Below, piece by piece: positions 1,922 through 16,318 of a stretch of DNA of 24,000 bases. The DNA comes from Gammaproteobacteria bacterium (GTDB taxonomy: Bacteria; Pseudomonadota; Gammaproteobacteria; JAJDYQ01), in the NCBI GenBank assembly GCA_036985915.1, contig BTQO01000002.1, forward strand, positions 3,541-27,540, given 5' to 3'. Position numbers and translations under genes: made by a program. The notes below the pieces were generated by a model, which had not been told where the DNA came from, did not search any database, and worked only from the letters and a program-made list of their open reading frames with translations. Position 1 is the first letter of the stretch; the number at the start of each line of letters is the position of its first letter.

Positions 1922-4264
1922 ATGCATGCATTTGAAGCATGGTTAGGCCCATTTGTCATTCGAAACCGCTGGTGGATCATTATCCTGACGCTGGCTTTGG
2001 TCGCCATTGCAGGTTCGGGCGGAAAGAACCTCAAGTTCACCACCAACTACCGTGTGTTCTTTAGCCCGGAAAATCCGCAACGGCTAGCGTTTGAAGAGCT
2101 TGAAAGCGTATACACAAGAAACGACAACGTACTGTTCGTAATTGCGCCGAAGGATGGCAATGTCTTTACGCCAGAACTGTTGTCACTGGTAGAAAAGGTC
2201 ACCGAACGCGCCTGGCAAACACCCTACTCGAACCGGGTTGACTCGATCAGCAACTTCCAATACACCAAAGCCCAAGGTGACGACCTGATCGTGCGTGACC
2301 TGGTCACGGACTCGGCAAACCTCAGCGAGGAGGACCTGGCCAAGATTCGCAAGGTGGCACTCTCGGAACCGCTACTGGTCACGCGGCTGGTATCCAGCAA
2401 AGGACATGTCACGGCGGTCAATATCACCGTGCAGTTACCGCGCATCGACGAGACCAAGGAAACACCTGAAGTAGTGACCTTTGTTCGTACACTGGCCGAT
2501 GAGATCCGGGCAGATTATCCCAATGTCGATATCTACCTCACCGGCATGATCATGATGAACAATGCCTTTGCCGAATCTTCCAAGCTGGATATGCGTACCC
2601 TGGTACCGGTCAGTTTCATCGTCATGTTGATCATTCTGGGACTGTTGTTGCGCGGCTTTACCAGTACGTTTGTCACCACGCTCGTCATCATATTTTCCGT
2701 AGTCACTGCCATGGGTGCCGGTGGCTGGATTGGTTTCCCGTTAACCCCACCGTCCGCGACCTCGCCTACAGTGATCCTGACTATAGCCATTGCCAACAGC
2801 GTGCATATATTGATGACGTTCGTGCAGAATATGCGTCATGGGCTGGGGAAGAACGATGCCATGAACGAGAGCCTGCGCATCAACCTGCAACCGGTGTTTC
2901 TCGCCAGCCTGACCACATCCATTGGCTTTCTCACCATGAACTTCTCGGAGGTGCCGCCATTCAGGCACCTGGGTAATTTTGTTGCAATTGGCGTTGCATC
3001 CTCGTTCATTTTTTCTGTTACCTTCCTGCCGGCATTAATGTCACTGCTACCAGTCAGGATACCAAAGGAAAAGGACGGTAAAGAAGAGGCAATGGCCGCA
3101 ATCGGTGAATTTGTCGTGCGCAGAAGAACACCGCTACTTTGGGGTATGGCGGCCTTAATCATCCTGTTGGTATCGTCCGTGCCACGCAACCAGCTCAATG
3201 ATGTGTTCGTGGAATATTTCGACGAAACTGTTCCCTTTAGAACCGATTCTGATTTCACCGTTGAGAATCTGACTGGTCTGTACAACCTGGAATACTCCCT
3301 GAAGTCCGGAGAACCCGGCGGTATTAGCAAGCCTGCTTTTCAAAAGGACGTGGCAGCACTTGCCAGATGGTTCCGCAACCAACCGGAAGTGCTGCATGTG
3401 AATGTCATCACCGATATTATGAAACGGCTTAACAAAAACATGCATGGCGATGAACCCGACTGGTATCGCCTGCCCGAGGAACGCGATCTTGCTGCGCAGT
3501 ATCTGCTGCTTTACGAAATGTCCCTGCCCTACGGTCTGGATCTGAATAACCAGATCAATATCGACAAATCCGCAACACGAATGACCGTAACAACCAGGAC
3601 CATTTCCTCCAATGAAGTTCTCGCCATGGAACGGCGCACGCAAGCATGGCTGAAGGAAAACGCGCAGCATATCGCACCAAGTGCTGGTACCGGTACAACA
3701 TTAATGTTCGCCAATATCGGCAGCCGAAACATTAAGGCTATGCTTATTGGTAGCACCATCGCACTCATATTGATTTCGTTTATCCTGATTGTTGCCTTTA
3801 GGTCAATCAAGACCGGGCTGGTCAGCATGATGCCGAATCTGGTACCTGCTGCCATGGGCTTCGGCGTCTGGGGCATTTTTGTCGGGCAAGTTGGCCTCGC
3901 ACTATCGATTGTCAGCAGCATGACATTGGGTATCGTGGTAGACGACACGGTGCATTTTTTAAGCAAGTACCTAAGAGCCAAACGCGAAAAACACCTGAAC
4001 TCGAAGGATGCCGTCCGTTATGCTTTTACCACTGTCGGCCGTGCATTACTGGTTACCTCCATTGTACTGATTGCGGGTTTCCTGGTCCTTTCGCTATCCA
4101 GTTTTGAGCTCAATTCAGGCATGGGATTACTGACCGCTATTGTCATCGCGTTGGCATTGTTGGCGGACTTCTTATTCCTGCCACCACTGTTGATGAAACT
4201 TGAGGAGAAGAATGATGAACAAATGGCTGCTAACGCTGCTGTTACTGATTCCACTCCTGCCTGA
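1922..4264 (+). CDS. RND-superfamily / MMPL-type inner-membrane exporter (two 6-TM bundles with large periplasmic loops)
   Basis: ~780 aa with duplicated hydrophobic blocks (around residues 230-390 and 610-770 of the track ORF) separated by soluble loops, typical of HpnN/MMPL-like RND transporters. ATG at 1922 preferred over the upstream TTG at 1898. Confidence 0.85.
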   Translation: MHAFEAWLGPFVIRNRWWIIILTLALVAIAGSGGKNLKFTTNYRVFFSPENPQRLAFEELESVYTRNDNVLFVIAPKDGNVFTPELLSLVEKVTERAWQTPYSNRVDSISNFQYTKAQGDDLIVRDLVTDSANLSEEDLAKIRKVALSEPLLVTRLVSSKGHVTAVNITVQLPRIDETKETPEVVTFVRTLADEIRADYPNVDIYLTGMIMMNNAFAESSKLDMRTLVPVSFIVMLIILGLLLRGFTSTFVTTLVIIFSVVTAMGAGGWIGFPLTPPSATSPTVILTIAIANSVHILMTFVQNMRHGLGKNDAMNESLRINLQPVFLASLTTSIGFLTMNFSEVPPFRHLGNFVAIGVASSFIFSVTFLPALMSLLPVRIPKEKDGKEEAMAAIGEFVVRRRTPLLWGMAALIILLVSSVPRNQLNDVFVEYFDETVPFRTDSDFTVENLTGLYNLEYSLKSGEPGGISKPAFQKDVAALARWFRNQPEVLHVNVITDIMKRLNKNMHGDEPDWYRLPEERDLAAQYLLLYEMSLPYGLDLNNQINIDKSATRMTVTTRTISSNEVLAMERRTQAWLKENAQHIAPSAGTGTTLMFANIGSRNIKAMLIGSTIALILISFILIVAFRSIKTGLVSMMPNLVPAAMGFGVWGIFVGQVGLALSIVSSMTLGIVVDDTVHFLSKYLRAKREKHLNSKDAVRYAFTTVGRALLVTSIVLIAGFLVLSLSSFELNSGMGLLTAIVIALALLADFLFLPPLLMKLEEKNDEQMAANAAVTDSTPA

Positions 4265-4997: not shown

Positions 4998-6182
4998 ATG
5001 CAGCGATTAACCCGATTACTTCTGCTGTGGCTGGTTGTAACACCTGCGATGGGGGGAGAATGGTCTGGGTATGTGTCGGGTGAGGTCAGGCTGTTTCCCA
5101 ATTCACCTGCGTATCCAGATCAGCGTGGTGACAACCTGTCATTCTCGTTTGAGCCGCAGTACTACAACGAATGGGATAACGGCAAGCAAAGCTTTACCTT
5201 TACACCTTTCTTGCGATTCGATCAGCGTGATGATGAGCGCACACACTTTGATATTCGCGAATTAACCTGGCTCAAAGCAGCCACGGACTGGGAGCTGCGC
5301 GTAGGTGTGCGTAAAGTGTTTTGGGGTGTCACTGAATCACGACACCTGGTCGATATCATTAACCAGACCGACTTGGTTGAAAACATCGATCGCGAGGAAA
5401 AGCTGGGCCAACCCATGATCAACCTCGCCTTGATTCGTGATTTTGGAACGATCGATCTGTTTCTGCTGCCCTACTTTCGCGAACGAACTTTTCCGGGTAA
5501 GAACGGACGGTTACGCATACCAATACCGGTTGATAAGGACCTTGTTCAATACGAGTCCGGCGCCAGGGAACGTCATGTCGACAGCGCCATACGCTGGTCA
5601 AACAGTATCGATATCTGGGACATTGGCCTTTCCTGGTTTCATGGCACAAGCCGTGATCCCCTGTTGATACCCGTCTTAGACAAACGTGGCACGCTCAAAC
5701 TGGCGCCGAGATACGACATTATCGACCAGGTAGGGCTGGATGTGCAGGCAACACAGGGCAGTTGGCTTTGGAAACTGGAAATGATCCGCCGCGGCGGCCA
5801 GGGTAAAAGCTTTACAGCATTTACGGGTGGCTTTGAATATACCTTTTACGGCATACAGGATTCATCGGCCGACCTGGGCGTTTTGCTGGAATACCTCTAC
5901 GACAGCCGTGATGATGCCGCACCGACACCATTTGAAGATGATGTCTTTGCGGGTATGCGGCTGGCACTGAACGATGCACAAAGCACCGAAGTGCTTGCCG
6001 GGTTCATCATCGATCGCAACGATGGCGGTGCCACATTCAACCTGGAGGCCAGCCGGCGATTAAGCGACAACTGGAAGCTGGAAGTCGAAGCGCGTTTCTT
6101 TAATGGATATGAACGAACCGATCCAGCATATACATTTCGCAAGGACGACTACGTCGAGGTCAAACTCAGCTACCACTTTTAA
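4998..6182 (+). CDS. putative outer-membrane beta-barrel protein (function unknown)
   Basis: The ATG directly abuts the previous stop (TAA 4995-4997). Signal peptide MQRLTRLLLLWLVVTPAMG. Alternating amphipathic strands and a C-terminal aromatic residue (..KLSYHF), typical of OMP barrels. Confidence 0.6.
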   Translation: MQRLTRLLLLWLVVTPAMGGEWSGYVSGEVRLFPNSPAYPDQRGDNLSFSFEPQYYNEWDNGKQSFTFTPFLRFDQRDDERTHFDIRELTWLKAATDWELRVGVRKVFWGVTESRHLVDIINQTDLVENIDREEKLGQPMINLALIRDFGTIDLFLLPYFRERTFPGKNGRLRIPIPVDKDLVQYESGARERHVDSAIRWSNSIDIWDIGLSWFHGTSRDPLLIPVLDKRGTLKLAPRYDIIDQVGLDVQATQGSWLWKLEMIRRGGQGKSFTAFTGGFEYTFYGIQDSSADLGVLLEYLYDSRDDAAPTPFEDDVFAGMRLALNDAQSTEVLAGFIIDRNDGGATFNLEASRRLSDNWKLEVEARFFNGYERTDPAYTFRKDDYVEVKLSYHF

Positions 6183-11327: not shown

Positions 11328-12098
11328 TTGCGGCATGCCGCGGGGGAATCCGGACAAGTGCTGGAAAACTATCAGGATTATATCGAAGCAGCCGGCAAGA
11401 CCAGGTCCTTGAAGGACATTCATGCGCTCTGTTCCGATATGTGTAACCACTATGGCTTCGATCACTTTGTATACGGAGCAAGATTTCCTACTTCTTTACT
11501 CAATCCAAAGATTGTCTTCATCAGTGGCTACCCAACACAATGGTGGGAGCGCTATAAATCAGAAAATTACATGAGGATTGACCCGCTTGTGGCGCATTGT
11601 GAGCACAACATCACGCCTATTCGCTGGGATTGCATACAAAGGGATTTGCTTGAATCACCAAACATAAGCCGCTTTATGTCAGAGGCAGTTGATAGCGGAT
11701 TACGCAACGGTTTGAGTATACCTGTTCATACAAGCAATGGTGAGTTTGCCATGCTCAATTTTTCCACCTCAGATAGCCCTGAGAAATCTTCTGATCATAT
11801 TATTCAAGGTACACCCGAAGTGTACTTGCTTACCAACTACATCCACGAAGCTGTAACCCGCATCGTAGATGCTCTGGGAGAAGATAAGCCTCTCGTTAAA
11901 CTCACAAACCGGGAACGAGAGTGCCTTTTGTGGGCTGCTGATGGTAAAACGGCCTGGGAAACAGCCCAGATACTCAAAGTCTCCGAAAGAACTATTGTCT
12001 GGCATATCCAGAATGCCCAATCAAAGCTCAAAACCGTCAGCAGACAACAAACGGTCGCAAGAGCCATCTCAAGAGGCATCATCTCTCCGCAACTTTAA
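11328..12098 (+). CDS. luxR: LuxR-family acyl-homoserine-lactone-responsive transcriptional regulator
   Basis: The autoinducer-binding domain has the conserved W/Y/D-P/W/G positions (TQWWERY, RIDPLV, PIRWD, GLSIPV). C-terminal LuxR HTH: LTNRERECLLWAADGKTAWETAQILKVSERTIVWHIQNA. The true start may be the GTG at 11358, preceded by GGGGGA, rather than the TTG at 11328. Confidence 0.92.
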   Translation: MRHAAGESGQVLENYQDYIEAAGKTRSLKDIHALCSDMCNHYGFDHFVYGARFPTSLLNPKIVFISGYPTQWWERYKSENYMRIDPLVAHCEHNITPIRWDCIQRDLLESPNISRFMSEAVDSGLRNGLSIPVHTSNGEFAMLNFSTSDSPEKSSDHIIQGTPEVYLLTNYIHEAVTRIVDALGEDKPLVKLTNRERECLLWAADGKTAWETAQILKVSERTIVWHIQNAQSKLKTVSRQQTVARAISRGIISPQL

Positions 12099-12167
12099 AG
12101 GCTGGCCTTAAACGCATGCTCTTGCGTATAAGCAATACTTCTTTTGTTTTCAATATGTTACGCATGC

Positions 12168-12187
12168 ACCTGTAAGATCTTACAGTT
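12168..12187. promoter_or_regulatory. lux box (LuxR-type operator) upstream of the first luxI
   Basis: ACCTGTAAGATCTTACAGTT contains a perfect 16-bp palindrome, CTGTAAGATCTTACAG (12170-12185). Compare the Vibrio fischeri lux box ACCTGTAGGATCGTACAGGT. The centre lies ~70 bp upstream of the luxI ATG at 12248. Confidence 0.85.
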
Positions 12188-12247
12188 ACGCCGCGTCAGT
12201 ACTCTGTCGTTTACTTATCCGGGGTGGTTTTTCCGGAGGTGTCGACG

Positions 12248-12895
12248 ATGTACAAAATATTCTGGGGCAAGGCAAACACTCTAAATCAGGCGATACTCGC
12301 TTCATTATTTTCATTCCGCTATCAGGTTTTCCGGCAACGGCTTGGATGGGATGTAGTTTGCAATGAGGGCCAGGAAACAGACCGATTCGATACTATAAAC
12401 CCGGCCTATATTGTTGCGTTAAACAAGAAGGGTGTTGCCGAGGGTTGTTTCCGGCTACTGCCAACAACAGGTGATTACATGCTAAAGCATGTTTTTCCTG
12501 AAATGATTGATGGCGATGACGCACCATGCGATGAAACTATTTGGGAGCTAAGCCGATTCGCTGTTATGCCTCGAAAAAAGAGTGCAGCAGTAAAAGGCGG
12601 CTGCTGCGCGGTAACGTTCCAGATTATCCGCAGTGTCTATGACTTCGCGGTAGCACATGGTATTAACCGGTATGTGTTTGTTACCAGCGTTGCCGTTGAA
12701 CGGCTATTGCGGCGACTTAAATTGCCAGTATCACGCTTTGGTAGCGGACATACATATCGACTCGGAAAAGTGCGATCTGTGGTGTTATGGGTTGATATTA
12801 ACGATCAATTCCGCCAAGCAATGTACGGCGACGCAGTGCCTGTAACACCGGATATAAATCTACTCAGCGGCTCCGGGTATGAACAGGCAGCCTGA
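12248..12895 (+). CDS. luxI: acyl-homoserine-lactone synthase, LuxI family (copy 1, canonical motifs)
   Basis: FRYQVFRQRLGWDV, GQETDRFD, FRLLPTTGDYML and IWELSRFAV are all LuxI-family signature blocks. GGAGG at 12235-12239 precedes the ATG at 12248. Confidence 0.92.
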   Translation: MYKIFWGKANTLNQAILASLFSFRYQVFRQRLGWDVVCNEGQETDRFDTINPAYIVALNKKGVAEGCFRLLPTTGDYMLKHVFPEMIDGDDAPCDETIWELSRFAVMPRKKSAAVKGGCCAVTFQIIRSVYDFAVAHGINRYVFVTSVAVERLLRRLKLPVSRFGSGHTYRLGKVRSVVLWVDINDQFRQAMYGDAVPVTPDINLLSGSGYEQAA

Positions 12896-12905
12896 TCAGA
12901 GGCAA

Positions 12906-13550
12906 ATGCTTATGCCAATCATAACAGCCAAAATAGGAGATCCTGCCCTTACCCCCGTACTTCTCGCCGATATGTTCAGCTTCCGTGCCCGTGTCTTTTC
13001 ACAGCAACTGGGCTGGGAGCGCGAATCGGACCAGGGGCGGGATAACCTTGATGACCTCAACCCGGTGTACGTCATATCACTTGATCACGGCCGGGTGAAT
13101 GGCTGCCTGCGGCTGCTGCCAACGGACGGCTGGTATATGCTCGGTGACGAATTTCCTGAACTGCTATGGGGAGAGCAGCCACCGCGCAGTCCGGTGGTCT
13201 GGGAAGTCAGCCGTTTTGCGGCGCAGGAAATAAATGCACCATGCGAATCATCAGTACAGATAGCGTCTCCTGACATCGCTTGGGAATTGATTTTATCCGC
13301 CATGCGCTTTGCGCTGAATGCCGGGGTCGAAACTTTCGTTGCAGTTGCCAGCACTGACGTTGAATCCTATCTGAAGTCAGTCGGCCTGCGAATGCGTCGC
13401 TTTGGTCTAGGCCATCAGGTGATGGTTTCCGGCTGCGCGATTACTGCACTAAAAATAAATGTTACCGCATCCCTGGCAAGGATAGACCTGGGAACACTCT
13501 CAGGAAACCAACACCATGCCGCAGCCACTCAACAACGCTCTGGAGATTAA
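12906..13550 (+). CDS. luxI: acyl-homoserine-lactone synthase, LuxI family (copy 2, divergent)
   Basis: FRARVFSQQLGWE, LRLLPTDGWYML and VWEVSRFAA are conserved, but the acidic block reads QGRDNLDD. Candidate starts are ATG 12879 (overlaps copy 1), 12906 (AGAGG upstream) and 12912. Confidence 0.85.
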   Translation: MLMPIITAKIGDPALTPVLLADMFSFRARVFSQQLGWERESDQGRDNLDDLNPVYVISLDHGRVNGCLRLLPTDGWYMLGDEFPELLWGEQPPRSPVVWEVSRFAAQEINAPCESSVQIASPDIAWELILSAMRFALNAGVETFVAVASTDVESYLKSVGLRMRRFGLGHQVMVSGCAITALKINVTASLARIDLGTLSGNQHHAAATQQRSGD

Positions 13551-13552
13551 CA

Positions 13553-14005
13553 TTGCTAAGAATACTCATGGTTGGTGCCTCGTCACGGACGGCATCTTTT
13601 TTTAATACCATTTGCGGCAAACGGGGACTGGCAGTGACAATACAGGATGACCCCGAAAGGGCATCCGAATTGCTGCGCAGCAATCCTGATACCTATGACT
13701 GGGTCATCGTAGAGGGCGATGATACCGCTGAACACACCGGTATTATTTCCAATACCCTGTCATCTAAAGATTCCAGGATACCACTGGCACTGCTGTATCA
13801 CCCGGTACAGTCATTTGGTGCGGTAGACGATATGTGGGCGGGCTCGCGACCACAGCAAAGATCACCTCAATATCATTCCCCTGAATTGCTTTCGCAACCA
13901 GAAGAACCCTGCCTGGTAACAAAACAACAGCACACTGTTACTGACTATGACCCGGTGGTGCTTGAATACCACGCCCCCTGTAAACCGAGGGCCAGGAAAA
14001 ACTAA
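13553..14005 (+). CDS. hypothetical 150-aa protein with a degenerate receiver(REC)-like N-terminal half and a P/Q-rich tail
   Basis: A TTG start lies 2 nt after the luxI-2 stop, with GGAGA 6 nt upstream. RILMVG..(helix)..LAVTIQ..(helix)..YDWVIVEGDD..IPLALLY follows the beta-alpha pattern of CheY-like receivers but lacks the N-terminal acidic pair. Family assignment is by eye only. Confidence 0.5.
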   Translation: MLRILMVGASSRTASFFNTICGKRGLAVTIQDDPERASELLRSNPDTYDWVIVEGDDTAEHTGIISNTLSSKDSRIPLALLYHPVQSFGAVDDMWAGSRPQQRSPQYHSPELLSQPEEPCLVTKQQHTVTDYDPVVLEYHAPCKPRARKN

Positions 14006-14032
14006 GGAAACTCTGATTTATTCTGAGTTTCC
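14006..14032. other. 8-bp perfect inverted repeat directly after the orphan ORF's stop
   Basis: GGAAACTC (14006-14013), an 11-nt spacer, then GAGTTTCC (14025-14032). No U-tract follows, so it could be a weak terminator or a protein-binding site. Confidence 0.3.
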
Positions 14033-14053
14033 GCGGTACAAGGACGATGTACA

Positions 14054-14127
14054 CGACTCCATGGCAAGGATTGTTCCCGACAATCCTTTTGCATTTCCTC
14101 CATCCATGGAGGTAGATGGAGGAGATA
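14054..14127 (+). repeat. 74-bp direct repeat, copy 1
   Basis: CGACTCCATGGCAAGGATTGTTCCCGACAATCCTTTTGCATTTCCTCCATCCATGGAGGTAGATGGAGGAGATA. It is 73/74 identical to 14179-14252, a 125-bp period. Confidence 0.95.
14066..14090 (+). terminator. terminator-like hairpin inside repeat copy 1 (an identical copy lies at 14191-14215)
   Basis: AAGGATTGT-TCCCG-ACAATCCTT is a 9-bp perfect stem with a 5-nt loop, running into TTTT on the + strand only. Confidence 0.35.
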
Positions 14128-14178
14128 GAGCCGCGTCGGGAACGGCGGCCGAAGGATGTACAAGTGTCGCGAGAGGCG

Positions 14179-14252
14179 CGACTCCTTGGCAAGGATTGTT
14201 CCCGACAATCCTTTTGCATTTCCTCCATCCATGGAGGTAGATGGAGGAGATA
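14179..14252 (+). repeat. 74-bp direct repeat, copy 2
   Basis: Same sequence as 14054-14127 apart from one A-to-T difference (14061 vs 14186). Confidence 0.95.
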
Positions 14253-14430
14253 CGAGCCCATGGATGGGCGAAGGTAGAACAATGCAGGAGCAATTGTCGA
14301 GAATGAAGCACGACTGCATGGACGCAGAAGGTAGAGCAACGCATGGAGCAGTTGCCGAGGAGCCAGAGCCGAGGATGCCGGGAGCGGCTGTACCGCCAAA
14401 ATCGATCCTCGCAGGGAATTGATTTTGTGA

Positions 14431-14458
14431 GGAAAACGGAAACTTGTTTTCGTTTTCC
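14431..14458 (+). terminator. terminal 13-bp hairpin closing the GGA-rich region
   Basis: GGAAAACGGAAAC-TT-GTTTTCGTTTTCC has one mismatch. No clean U-tract follows, so terminator function is uncertain. Confidence 0.3.
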
Positions 14459-14593
14459 GTGCGCTGATAATTCTTAGATGGAATTATTCTTAAGCTTCCC
14501 TAAAACTAGGGTCTGCGTTCTTTTTGTGTAATCGCCTTTCTTTTTATATGCTGATCAAATTCGCCCTGCGAAAAACCATCAGCCTGGTCAAAA

Positions 14594-16318
14594 CTACATG
14601 AGCGGTCTTGGTTCTTCGATGCCATAACCTTGAGCATAATTGACACCTATCTCCTTCAATTTCTTTAAGATAGCATCATCTTCAACAAATTCGGCAATGG
14701 TTTGTTTGCCCATCACATGGCCTATTTCGTTAATGGATTTAACCATTGCATAATCGATAGGGTCATTCACGATATTCTTAACAAAAGTGCCATCTATTTT
14801 AAGATAATCGACTGGCAGATTTTTTAGATAGGCAAATGAGGAAAATCCACTGCCAAAATCGTCAAGAGCAAATTTACAGCCATCTTCCTTCAGGGTATGT
14901 ATAAAATGTTTTGCATCGTTCAGGCTGGTAATTGCCGCTGTTTCTGTAATTTCAAAGCAGATCTTCTCTGGCGGTATTGAACTATTATTCAGCGCATGGA
15001 CTATAACACTTAAAATATGATCGTCACTAAGGGTCTGTCCAGAAATATTTATCGAACAAATCTGAAGATTCTCGAGTTTCTCCGGATTGGCATCCAGCCA
15101 GGAAAAGGCCCTTTCGACCACCCACTGATCTAACTTGCTTGATAGGTTAAAACGCTCTGCCGCAGGAAGGAAATTTCCTGGTAGCACCATATTTCCTTCC
15201 TCATCCTCCATCCTGACGAGCAGCTCATAATGTTCTCTTTGTTGTCCGTTTATTATCGGCATTATCTTTTGGTAATAAAGATGAAAGCGATCTTCCCTGA
15301 TTGCCTTGGTTATTGAACTCACCAATTTCATTTCTTTATTTTGCTGCGCCAGTTCACTATCGGATTGATCAAACATCCGTATACGATTTCGACCGGCATC
15401 TTTCGCAGCGAACAAGGCTGCATCAGCCATATTCATCGCGCTGGATATTTTCTTCACGGCGGTATTTACGGGTGCGACCCCGATACTGGAGCTTATATCA
15501 AATGACTTATCTTCCCAGGTAAATACATGAGCCCGGATCGCATCCCTGAGACGCATAATGACCTTGTCAGCCTGTAGCATTGGACAGATCATCAGCAATA
15601 TTCCAAACTCATCACCATCAATTCTTGCGACTATGTCGTTCTGTTTTAGCAAACCCCTTAAGAGACTGCCTACCTGGCGCAATAGTTCGTCACCTGCAAC
15701 GTATCCACATGTATTATTAATGACCTTGAATTGATCGAGGTCGATGTAGCATAACGTGTGCTCAATATCATTTAAGCTGGTTATATCCATGCTTTGCTGT
15801 AGACGATGTTCGAACTCCCGCCGATTGACAAGCCCAGTTAAAGGATCGTGCGTTTCCTGATATGACAGCTTTTCCGAGAGTGTATGTGCAACTGTTGTGT
15901 CTTCGCAGACCATTAAAAGCCTTTCCTCATTGCCGGCTTCCCGAACTATTCGAACAGTATTCCTGTACCACATGCCATCACCCGACTTACGCACCATCTT
16001 TGACTGGCGCACATGAACAATATCTGGTTGCTGAAGGAAGGCGGTAATCCAGGTCTGTAAAGCGTCCGTTAAACCCTCCGGATATACCACTGATATCGAC
16101 TGACCTAATAATTCATCAAGAGTGTAGCCCAGTTGTTCGGCGCCGAATCGGTTAACCGATAGGATTATTCCGTCCGCATTCAGTGTAAAAAAGATTGCTG
16201 GCGTATCATCGTAAAGCTCACGGTTGCGAACTTCAAATGCGCGCATATTTGGATCCTTTACGTTGTTCTTATTCATGCGGTTCCCTTTTTCTGCTTCCTG
16301 GCTTTTAATTGTGCTCAT
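14594..16318 (-). CDS. PAS-GGDEF-EAL c-di-GMP signalling protein (degenerate DGDEF motif, apparently intact EAL)
   Basis: PAS: FFTLNADGIILSVNRFGAEQLGY. GGDEF domain with RIDGDEFGILL. EAL domain with YELLVR, SINISG, CFEITE, ALDDFGSGFSS, LKIDG, IAEFVE and QGY. Confidence 0.92.
   Translation of the reverse strand: MSTIKSQEAEKGNRMNKNNVKDPNMRAFEVRNRELYDDTPAIFFTLNADGIILSVNRFGAEQLGYTLDELLGQSISVVYPEGLTDALQTWITAFLQQPDIVHVRQSKMVRKSGDGMWYRNTVRIVREAGNEERLLMVCEDTTVAHTLSEKLSYQETHDPLTGLVNRREFEHRLQQSMDITSLNDIEHTLCYIDLDQFKVINNTCGYVAGDELLRQVGSLLRGLLKQNDIVARIDGDEFGILLMICPMLQADKVIMRLRDAIRAHVFTWEDKSFDISSSIGVAPVNTAVKKISSAMNMADAALFAAKDAGRNRIRMFDQSDSELAQQNKEMKLVSSITKAIREDRFHLYYQKIMPIINGQQREHYELLVRMEDEEGNMVLPGNFLPAAERFNLSSKLDQWVVERAFSWLDANPEKLENLQICSINISGQTLSDDHILSVIVHALNNSSIPPEKICFEITETAAITSLNDAKHFIHTLKEDGCKFALDDFGSGFSSFAYLKNLPVDYLKIDGTFVKNIVNDPIDYAMVKSINEIGHVMGKQTIAEFVEDDAILKKLKEIGVNYAQGYGIEEPRPLM

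Follow-up and report, generated by a model that had tools for sequence, protein, structure and literature searches.

The window analysed here is a 24,000-nt stretch of a gammaproteobacterial contig (BTQO01000002.1), in which a non-coding gap separates a luxR-luxI quorum-sensing cluster from a convergent gene encoding a PAS-GGDEF-EAL protein. The gap contains an IS5-like miniature inverted-repeat transposable element (MITE), which entered the sequence at the stop codon of the final lux-cluster gene; as cargo it carries covarying hairpin modules that occur in many copies elsewhere. With some reserve, we favour a reading of these sequences as a mobile-element-borne array of probable CsrA-binding hairpins that resembles the TwoAYGGAY RNAs in design and in multicopy spread. 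The original prediction for this region, a dedicated Csr/Rsm-type sponge small RNA (sRNA) gene, is partly supported: the hairpins and their GGA loops are present, and the dedicated gene is not upheld.

Insertion of an IS5-like MITE at the stop codon of the last lux cluster gene

The insertion is delimited by an empty site in the closest relative, a contig of the JGI metagenome 3300003885 (L003). In a BLAST comparison, window positions 13323-14005 correspond to L003 1-683 and positions 14501-16074 to L003 681-2254, at 93% identity. The two flanks abut in L003 with the TAA in common, exactly 14006-14500 is missing, and the convergent genes are separated by about 90 nt. Conservation of the region in a related genome had been set beforehand as a test of the sponge gene, and this relative lacks the whole block. 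The missing block, the terminal repeats and the CTAA duplication together identify 14006-14499 as a MITE. The TAA of the left CTAA is the stop codon of a 150-aa open reading frame (ORF, 13553-14005).

The terminal inverted repeats are imperfect, 11 bp long and have the consensus GGAARSTCTGA; the element with its flanks reads CTAA-GGAAACTCTGA...CTTAAGCTTCC-CTAA. An unrelated locus of 301 nt (L220 4866-5166) is organised in the same way, CTAA-GGAAGGTCTG...CAGAGCTTCC-CTAA, with a different interior, and the reverse complement of its right end, GGAAGCTCTGA, agrees with the left end in the window at 10 of 11 bases. A third locus, L189, shares the left end of the MITE. In an alignment, about 100 nt are conserved on either side and the centre is variable. 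Hairpin A, formed by the left terminal repeat, is kept in L220 with compensatory changes (GGAAGGTCTG..CAGACCTTCC), the inner repeat GCGGTACA is conserved in both L189 and L220, and hairpins of like architecture are found in L220 at positions equivalent to window 14397-14458.

An IS5 copy read for comparison terminates in GGAAGGTGCGAA.../...TTCGCACCTTCC, with TTAA on one side and CTAA on the other; hence the ends and the target of the MITE are IS5-like. As in the IS5 family and its MITEs, the terminal repeats start with GGAAG, the target duplication has 4 bp (CTAA, of the IS5 YTAR type), the site is empty in a relative, no transposase lies inside, and the ends are conserved while the interior varies. 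In contrast to the IS5 family, agreement with the Escherichia coli IS5 is limited to the first 5-7 bases of the repeat, and the left end in the window forms a hairpin by itself, from two inverted copies of the repeat. Logan short-read contigs from the same organism (DRR500112) stop at about 14031 (end of L001) and about 14474 (end of L004), as expected for repeated DNA at both element edges. Such arrays are probably under-represented in metagenome assemblies.

Hairpin modules of the element and their spread

While the ends of the MITE are conserved across loci, its interior varies and is put together from small stem-loop modules in mosaic fashion (Table 1). One of these is a 47-nt unit of two hairpins with sharp borders, (A)CGA-H1-RAGGUAGA-H2-CGA(G), present in two copies in the window. 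Among its 32 variants, compensatory changes were observed in 10 of 12 base pairs, and 85.9% of cells were paired, compared with 20-49% in slid controls; the observed score was attained by none of 500 shuffles. The pair closing hairpin 1 is C-G in all 32 variants. Within the window, the stem changes of copy 1 are compensatory relative to both copy 2 and the family. All seven GGA-loop hairpins quoted in the original prediction were located, and the two of them described as sharing a bulged A (14279-14297 and 14336-14355) turned out to belong to two copies of a single 47-50-nt module, in each of which they form the second hairpin.

Another two-hairpin GGA module, the M2-M1 unit, occurs twice at the locus in inverse orientation, within a 74-nt duplication (14054-14127 and 14179-14252, spacing 125 nt) that is 99% identical. 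Its minus strand reads CCUCC-A(U/G)GGAU-GGAGG ... GGAUUG-UCGGGAA-CAAUCC, with the loop AUGGAU in copy 1, while M1 resembles an intrinsic terminator when read on the plus strand. At least 120 metagenome contigs contain the M1 core GGATTGTTCCCGACAATCC (in the window at 14068 and 14193); its conserved flanks have the pattern GGCAA-...-TTTTGC-ATTT-CCTCCATCC(C/A)TGGAGG-TCAGATG, and it frequently stands beside the 47-nt unit or GCACAGGGATGTGC-type hairpins. The plus strand of M2 contains GGAGG-N3/4-AUG, resembling a sequestered ribosome-binding site, with no conserved ORF after it. The minus strand at 14079-14127 and 14204-14252 has a weak Rfam likeness (E=0.59) to a Betaproteobacteria toxic sRNA, owing to the CCUCC-rich, anti-Shine-Dalgarno-like arm of M2. 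In the left arm of the MITE, a 13-nt insertion relative to L189 and L220, AGGACGATGTACA, gave a new GGA-loop hairpin.

Table 1. Coordinates of the MITE, its repeats and its hairpin modules in the window
Feature	Position	Strand	Remark
Left target-site duplication CTAA	14002..14005		repeated at 14500-14503
MITE, non-autonomous, IS5-like ends, 494 bp	14006..14499	+	empty site in L003; same ends at L220, L189
Hairpin A: left terminal inverted repeat GGAAACTCTGA (14006-14016) and its own inverted copy (14022-14032)	14006..14032		
Inner inverted repeat GCGGTACA, pairs with TGTACCGC at 14389-14396, encloses the module array	14033..14040		
Hairpin GUACA-AGGACGA-UGUAC, GGA in loop	14036..14052	+	13-nt insertion relative to L189, L220
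74-nt unit copy 1: M1 14064-14092 and M2 14097-14112	14054..14127	-	duplication search
Hairpin GCCGCG-UCGGGAA-CGGCGGC, loop as in M1 minus strand, stem differs	14130..14149	+	similar unit in L205, L139
74-nt unit copy 2: M1 14189-14217 and M2 14222-14237	14179..14252	-	duplication search
Two-hairpin module copy 1: ACGA-GCCC[AUGGAU]GGGC-GAAGGUAGA-ACAAUGC[AGGA]GCAAUUGU-CGAG	14252..14301	+	nhmmer E=2e-13
Two-hairpin module copy 2: ACGA-CUGC[AUGGAC]GCAG-AAGGUAGA-GCAACGC[AUGGA]GCAGUUGC-CGAG	14310..14359	+	nhmmer E=4e-15
Small hairpin GCCG-GGAG-CGGC	14377..14388	+	
Inner inverted repeat TGTACCGC, partner of 14033-14040	14389..14396		
Two subterminal hairpins (14397-14427, 14431-14458), conserved right arm of the MITE	14397..14458		
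Right terminal inverted repeat CTTAAGCTTCC (reverse complement GGAAGCTTAAG)	14489..14499		
Right target-site duplication CTAA	14500..14503		matches 14002-14005

The 36-nt core pattern of the 47-nt unit was found in 97 genome stretches from at least eight genera or families, often at contig ends. Near-identical copies span the Alteromonadales, Methylococcales, Oceanospirillales and Cellvibrionales; the carriers are Pseudoalteromonas, Shewanella, Colwellia, Methylobacter, Methylovulum, Methylomarinum, Motiliproteus, Neptunomonas, Cellvibrionaceae and Thiohalomonas. Short intergenic segments of Pseudoalteromonas chromids share 90-92% identity with the copy at 14310-14359. The unit is present in at least nine copies in one Pseudoalteromonas draft genome and at up to five places in chromids. 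Three IMG/VR contigs contain it, the only plasmid matches are the Pseudoalteromonas chromids, and no match was found in a phage collection. A search of the published literature by sequence string and by MITE and CsrA keywords returned no paper on these modules.

The unit is carried by unrelated repeats in different taxa. In Pseudoalteromonas its carrier is a 210-nt MITE that has 28-nt terminal repeats CCAATCCGCAATAATACTTAATCATTTT and holds the unit at its centre; one contig (L055) has this MITE both without the unit (3980-4141) and with the exact unit (5410-5621), and no target duplication is present at the module borders (tta/gaac). In Shewanella the carrier is a different repeat, and the units sometimes form head-to-tail tandem arrays with a period of 47 (about six copies at L091 1488-1771, four at L052 4796-4985 and about three at L009 3363-3505). 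These Shewanella arrays have GGA uniformly on one strand and are even more similar to a sponge RNA than the array in the window. In Methylococcaceae the unit occupies the loop of palindromes that resemble repetitive extragenic palindromic (REP) sequences. Overall, an inverted repeat of at least 8 nt spans the unit in 61% of 56 distinct contexts, compared with 2% of controls. No protein family, transposases and RAYT included, recurs beside the copies at the 97 loci. The gene contexts are convergent in 36 cases and divergent in 10. From these sequence comparisons we are confident that 14006-14499 is a MITE and that its modules are dispersed.

In two unrelated genomes the 47-nt module is located just downstream of csrA-tRNA-Ser(GCU)(-tRNA-Arg), with two sense copies in one (L054 6177-7201) and one antisense copy in the other (L087 1888-2534). 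This adjacency, seen at 2 of about 97 loci with about 0.2 expected by chance, could equally be caused by a preference for insertion at tRNA flanks.

The GGA richness noted in the original prediction for 14040-14460 was confirmed. The region contains 21 GGA and 14 TCC triplets and has the top GGA score among the 420-nt stretches of the window (mean 5.8, sd 2.8); its own dinucleotide-preserving shuffles (n=1000) gave 13.5±2.5 GGA, and 21 was reached in 0.4% of them. The second half (14255-14440) has the 10 GGA reported and a single TCC where about two had been claimed. In the first half (14040-14254) the counts are balanced, 11 versus 12, because the inverse-oriented M2-M1 unit is located there. 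Folding is far more stable than in shuffles on either strand (z -6.7 and -8.0), which implies that much of the array structure is DNA palindromy, and the approximately 8-9 GGA-loop hairpins of the plus strand are accompanied by 4 on the minus strand.

CsrA-type loops and alternative explanations

The loops of the modules follow a position-specific code. Among 91 unique hairpins of the form stem-[xNGGAN]-stem in the arrays, 77% have C-A-N-GGA-N-G, compared with a background of 20%. The two N positions use all four bases (T 21, G 37, A 19 and C 14 at the first; T 43, A 15, G 10 and C 23 at the second), and 24 different stems are represented. C-A-N-GGA-N-G corresponds to the consensus recognised by CsrA/RsmE, (A/U)CANGGANG(U/A), and ACARGGAUGU, the core obtained for CsrA by systematic evolution of ligands by exponential enrichment, is present in variants such as GCACAGGGAUGUGC. 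Single mismatches on the GGA strand are G-U in 18 cases and A-C in 7 (p=0.04), a modest hint of selection acting on this strand as RNA or single-stranded DNA. Selection of the loops for CsrA binding has, in our estimate, an even chance or slightly better, and binding of CsrA by the hairpins in vitro is plausible given their loops. The proposal that the GGA loops are CsrA-type sites thus fits the C-A-N-GGA-N-G loops and their covarying stems, and does not extend to a dedicated sRNA gene. No csrA gene is present within the 24-kb window; csrA was found in two module-carrying genomes (L054 and L087).

The Rfam covariance check suggested for the sponge gene was negative. At the gathering score the window matches none of the Rfam families of relevance or any other sRNA family, be it CsrB, CsrC, RsmX, RsmY, RsmZ or TwoAYGGAY, and even at E<=10 the regions 13900-14650 and 14240-14370 match no Csr/Rsm family. 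Scans of 28 genome loci (gathering score) and 16 metagenome loci (permissive E) returned only tRNAs, 5S rRNA, a Phe leader and chance matches. The GacA/UvrY box TGTAAG-N6-CTTACA, reported as lacking, is indeed absent from the window at up to two mismatches; the sole match with three mismatches in 12001-14700 is at 12095. The only terminator-like sites, 14066-14088 and 14191-14213, are the M1 hairpins in the first half of the array. Judging from the architecture, integron attC sites, self-cleaving ribozymes and type III antitoxin repeats also came into question; they were rejected, having neither Rfam support nor an associated gene.

A dedicated plus-strand Csr/Rsm sponge gene at 14040-14460, a CsrB/RsmZ analogue that would titrate CsrA, perhaps under quorum-sensing control, appears very improbable in the light of these results. 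The array does share with CsrB and CsrC, as with RsmX, RsmY and RsmZ, a high density of GGA in hairpin loops and linkers, loops that fit the CsrA/RsmE consensus and adjacent hairpin pairs spaced to suit the CsrA dimer, and it adjoins luxR/luxI genes and a c-di-GMP gene. Unlike these sRNAs, it is not a conserved gene: it lies between transposon ends and is absent from the nearest relative, it has no covariance-model match, GacA/UvrY box or promoter, its terminator-like sites are in mid-array rather than terminal, and its blocks are multicopy and dispersed, with GGA hairpins on both strands. In Pseudoalteromonas, a carrier genus, the three verified Csr sRNAs Pf1-3 are at separate loci with signals of their own: a conserved sequence upstream, promoters tested by experiment and predicted terminators. 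The Csr/Rsm sponge is the closest functional analogy, but the array falls outside this class by its model match, promoter box and conservation.

The modules could also be purely DNA-level selfish repeats, either similar to REP sequences and bacterial interspersed mosaic elements (BIMEs) or minimal IS200/IS605-like hairpins mobilised in trans. Their loops, bulged A and GGTAG linker would then be recognised by a nuclease or transposase on folded single-stranded DNA, and the likeness to CsrA sites would have arisen by chance, with no function at the RNA level. We consider this possible, though not what we expect. Both orientations are present within arrays, there is no sense bias relative to transcription, other palindromes enclose modules at their centres, the unit is exactly present or absent without target duplication, tandem amplification is observed, assemblies break at copies, and both strands fold equally well. 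GTAG stands directly 5' of the second hairpin and resembles REP heads. On the other hand, near-identity across orders at low copy number is unlike the lineage-specific REPs, neither a Y1 nor any other transposase recurs nearby, the variable loop positions are exactly the two N of CANGGANG, and the excess of G-U over A-C on the GGA strand also speaks against a role confined to DNA. Strand mix, palindrome nesting and exact presence or absence without target duplication favour spreading at the DNA level; the ideas of CsrA binding and of recognition by a DNA enzyme are not mutually exclusive.

Another explanation is that GGA is irrelevant and that the element serves as a bidirectional transcription barrier or as a stabiliser of mRNA 3' ends between the lux cluster and the GGDEF-EAL gene. 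The very stable folding of both strands (z -6.7 and -8.0), the terminator-like M1 hairpins, the short distance of only about 90 nt between the convergent genes in L003 and the enrichment of the family between convergent genes all agree with it. Enrichment at 3' ends would likewise be shown by tolerated insertions, however, and neither the conserved C-A-N-GGA-N-G loops nor the conservation across orders is explained; we regard a role of this kind as improbable. The possibility that the region encodes proteins is negligible in our view. The statement that the gap, estimated at about 590 bp and measured at 588 nt, has no credible ORF needs to be qualified: ORFs of 105-153 aa on the minus strand do cross the region, and there are frames of 53-97 aa on the plus strand. 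The longest, of 153 aa, has no Pfam match and lies in repeat DNA, the frames cross repeat modules and MITE ends and extend into the neighbouring gene, the region is absent in L003, and open frames are expected from stop-poor, GGA- and GC-rich repeats.

Several observations weigh against the favoured reading of a mobile array of CsrA-binding hairpins. Concerning mobility, no autonomous insertion sequence with the ends of the MITE was found among the loci compared, and only two complete copies and one left end of the MITE were seen. Both the M1 core and the core of the 47-nt unit were found by exact patterns, and their conservation figures are inflated for this reason. Concerning a function as RNA, a scan of the region for sigma-70-like promoters gave 0 promoter-like sites, and for plus-strand read-through the terminator-like M1 hairpins precede the GGA-rich half. 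Modules within one array occupy both strands, the window having 4 GGA hairpins on the minus strand. In co-directional contexts the 47-nt unit is sense in 15 cases and antisense in 18 (4 versus 11 outside Pseudoalteromonas), a distribution that a strictly RNA-level role does not predict. In the part of the RNA immunoprecipitation sequencing data for CsrA that was inspected, which lists predicted sRNAs only, none of the sRNAs on the chromid of Pseudoalteromonas fuliginea BSW20308 (NZ_CP013139.1) overlaps a module, and the module copy at 724,211-724,259 is not among them; this is a weak negative.

In the same study (PMC11882849, Supplementary Data 6), sRNA0260 of P. fuliginea (NZ_CP013138.1 580254-580323) is given as a 70-nt CsrA-bound 'core' sRNA confirmed by electrophoretic mobility shift assay. 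The entries there show 0 GGA and 3 TCC for sRNA0260 and 0 GGA and 21 TCC for Pf2, and the listed strand appears to be inverted.

Related elements and possible regulatory role

Among RNA families, the closest analogy is with TwoAYGGAY (RF01731), two-hairpin AYGGAY RNAs that were proposed as CsrA binders (PMC4333381). In Pseudomonadota they are multicopy and variable in copy number, are flanked by repeats and REP arrays and are described as resembling mobile elements, and the link between mobility and regulation was left open (bioRxiv 10.64898/2026.09.22.753630). The modules described here are likewise multicopy, repeat-associated and mobile-like in distribution. Both designs place two hairpins with A-Y/N-GGA-Y/N loops one after the other, in many cases over a basal stem; the host palindrome supplies such a stem in 61% of the contexts of the 47-nt unit. 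The loops of hairpin 1 in the window (AUGGAU and AUGGAC) fit AYGGAY, while those of hairpin 2 (AGGA and AUGGA) do not fit it strictly. In most copies the second hairpin differs from TwoAYGGAY by a bulged A and a loop of AGGA, AUGGA or CGGGAA. The junctions ACGA / RAGGUAGA / CGAG of the 47-nt unit are conserved. RF01731 did not detect the modules at E<=10 in 14240-14370, at E<=0.1 in the 16 metagenome array loci or at the gathering score in the 28 genome loci, and for this reason they probably represent a new variant alongside TwoAYGGAY rather than a member of it.

A precedent for a small-RNA element riding on a MITE is MITEPpu9 of Pseudomonas putida, in which the ssr9 sRNA gene hitch-hikes and multiplies on a MITE-like element (PMC12288879). 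It differs in belonging to the IS110 family and in carrying another RNA; ssr9 is a defined transcribed sRNA, whereas transcripts of the array in the window are putative. Similarity was also observed to the pneumococcal BOX elements, to enterobacterial repetitive intergenic consensus (ERIC) sequences and to REP/BIME, which share the modular A-B(n)-C build with tandem expansion of the middle module, the placement at the 3' ends of genes and, in both orientations, strong hairpins. Unlike in those elements, the central module is common to unrelated carriers across orders and has a protein-binding-like loop code, and the copy numbers seen are low, from single digits to tens. REP/BIME systems with RAYT are characterised by a GTAG head before an imperfect palindrome, by tens to hundreds of copies and by a RAYT gene between REPs; in the modules GGTAGA precedes hairpin 2, the copy numbers seen are low, and no recurrent neighbour protein was found in the 97 loci.

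The gene cluster upstream of the MITE begins with luxR (11328-12098), followed by two luxI paralogues (12224-12895 and 12879-13550) and the 150-aa ORF on the plus strand. The two tandem autoinducer synthase genes overlap by 17 nt, and the quorum-sensing cluster as a whole spans 11328-14005. The product of the 150-aa ORF has a single homologue (P0001, 89% identity, on contig L003) among 5.8 billion proteins. The PAS-GGDEF-EAL gene (14594-16318) is on the minus strand, and the gap between it and the 150-aa ORF is 14006-14593.

Since no promoter of its own was detected, RNA from the array would come from read-through of the flanking convergent genes. A plus-strand RNA from the luxI side would contain about 8-9 GGA-loop hairpins, although M1 may terminate it early, and a minus-strand RNA from the GGDEF-EAL side about 4. 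High-affinity binding of CsrA would be the likeliest molecular property of such module transcripts, judging from the loop code, and the array could serve as a CsrA-binding 3' tail or a local sponge. In any case it would form a strongly structured barrier between the two convergent genes. A physiologically relevant sponge at this particular locus seems unlikely to us.

We speculate, with still less commitment than for the array as a whole, that the 47-nt unit and its relatives such as M2-M1 constitute a mobile cassette of CsrA sites that inserts into the loops of palindromic DNA (REPs, MITEs and terminators) and rewires the Csr regulon; this remains rather doubtful, though conceivable. If it is true, transcribed copies would turn 3' untranslated regions or intergenic RNAs into CsrA-binding tails. 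Together they would add to the Csr/Rsm regulon a sponge or rewiring layer that is distributed and spreads horizontally, apart from the dedicated sRNAs under GacA control. In the window, CsrA availability would then be coupled to transcription of the quorum-sensing operon and of the c-di-GMP gene.

Scans for GGA-loop arrays can confuse mobile repeats with regulatory sRNA genes, and the two can be told apart by an empty site, ends with terminal inverted repeats and target-site duplications, copy number and strand mix. The module family described here is outside Rfam, is near-identical across several orders, is nested in unrelated carriers and has loops that follow the CsrA code by position. If CsrA binds these modules, transposable elements would be spreading the sites of a global post-transcriptional regulator and would add a mobile layer to the Csr/Rsm network, which would bear on the link between mobility and regulation raised for the TwoAYGGAY elements.

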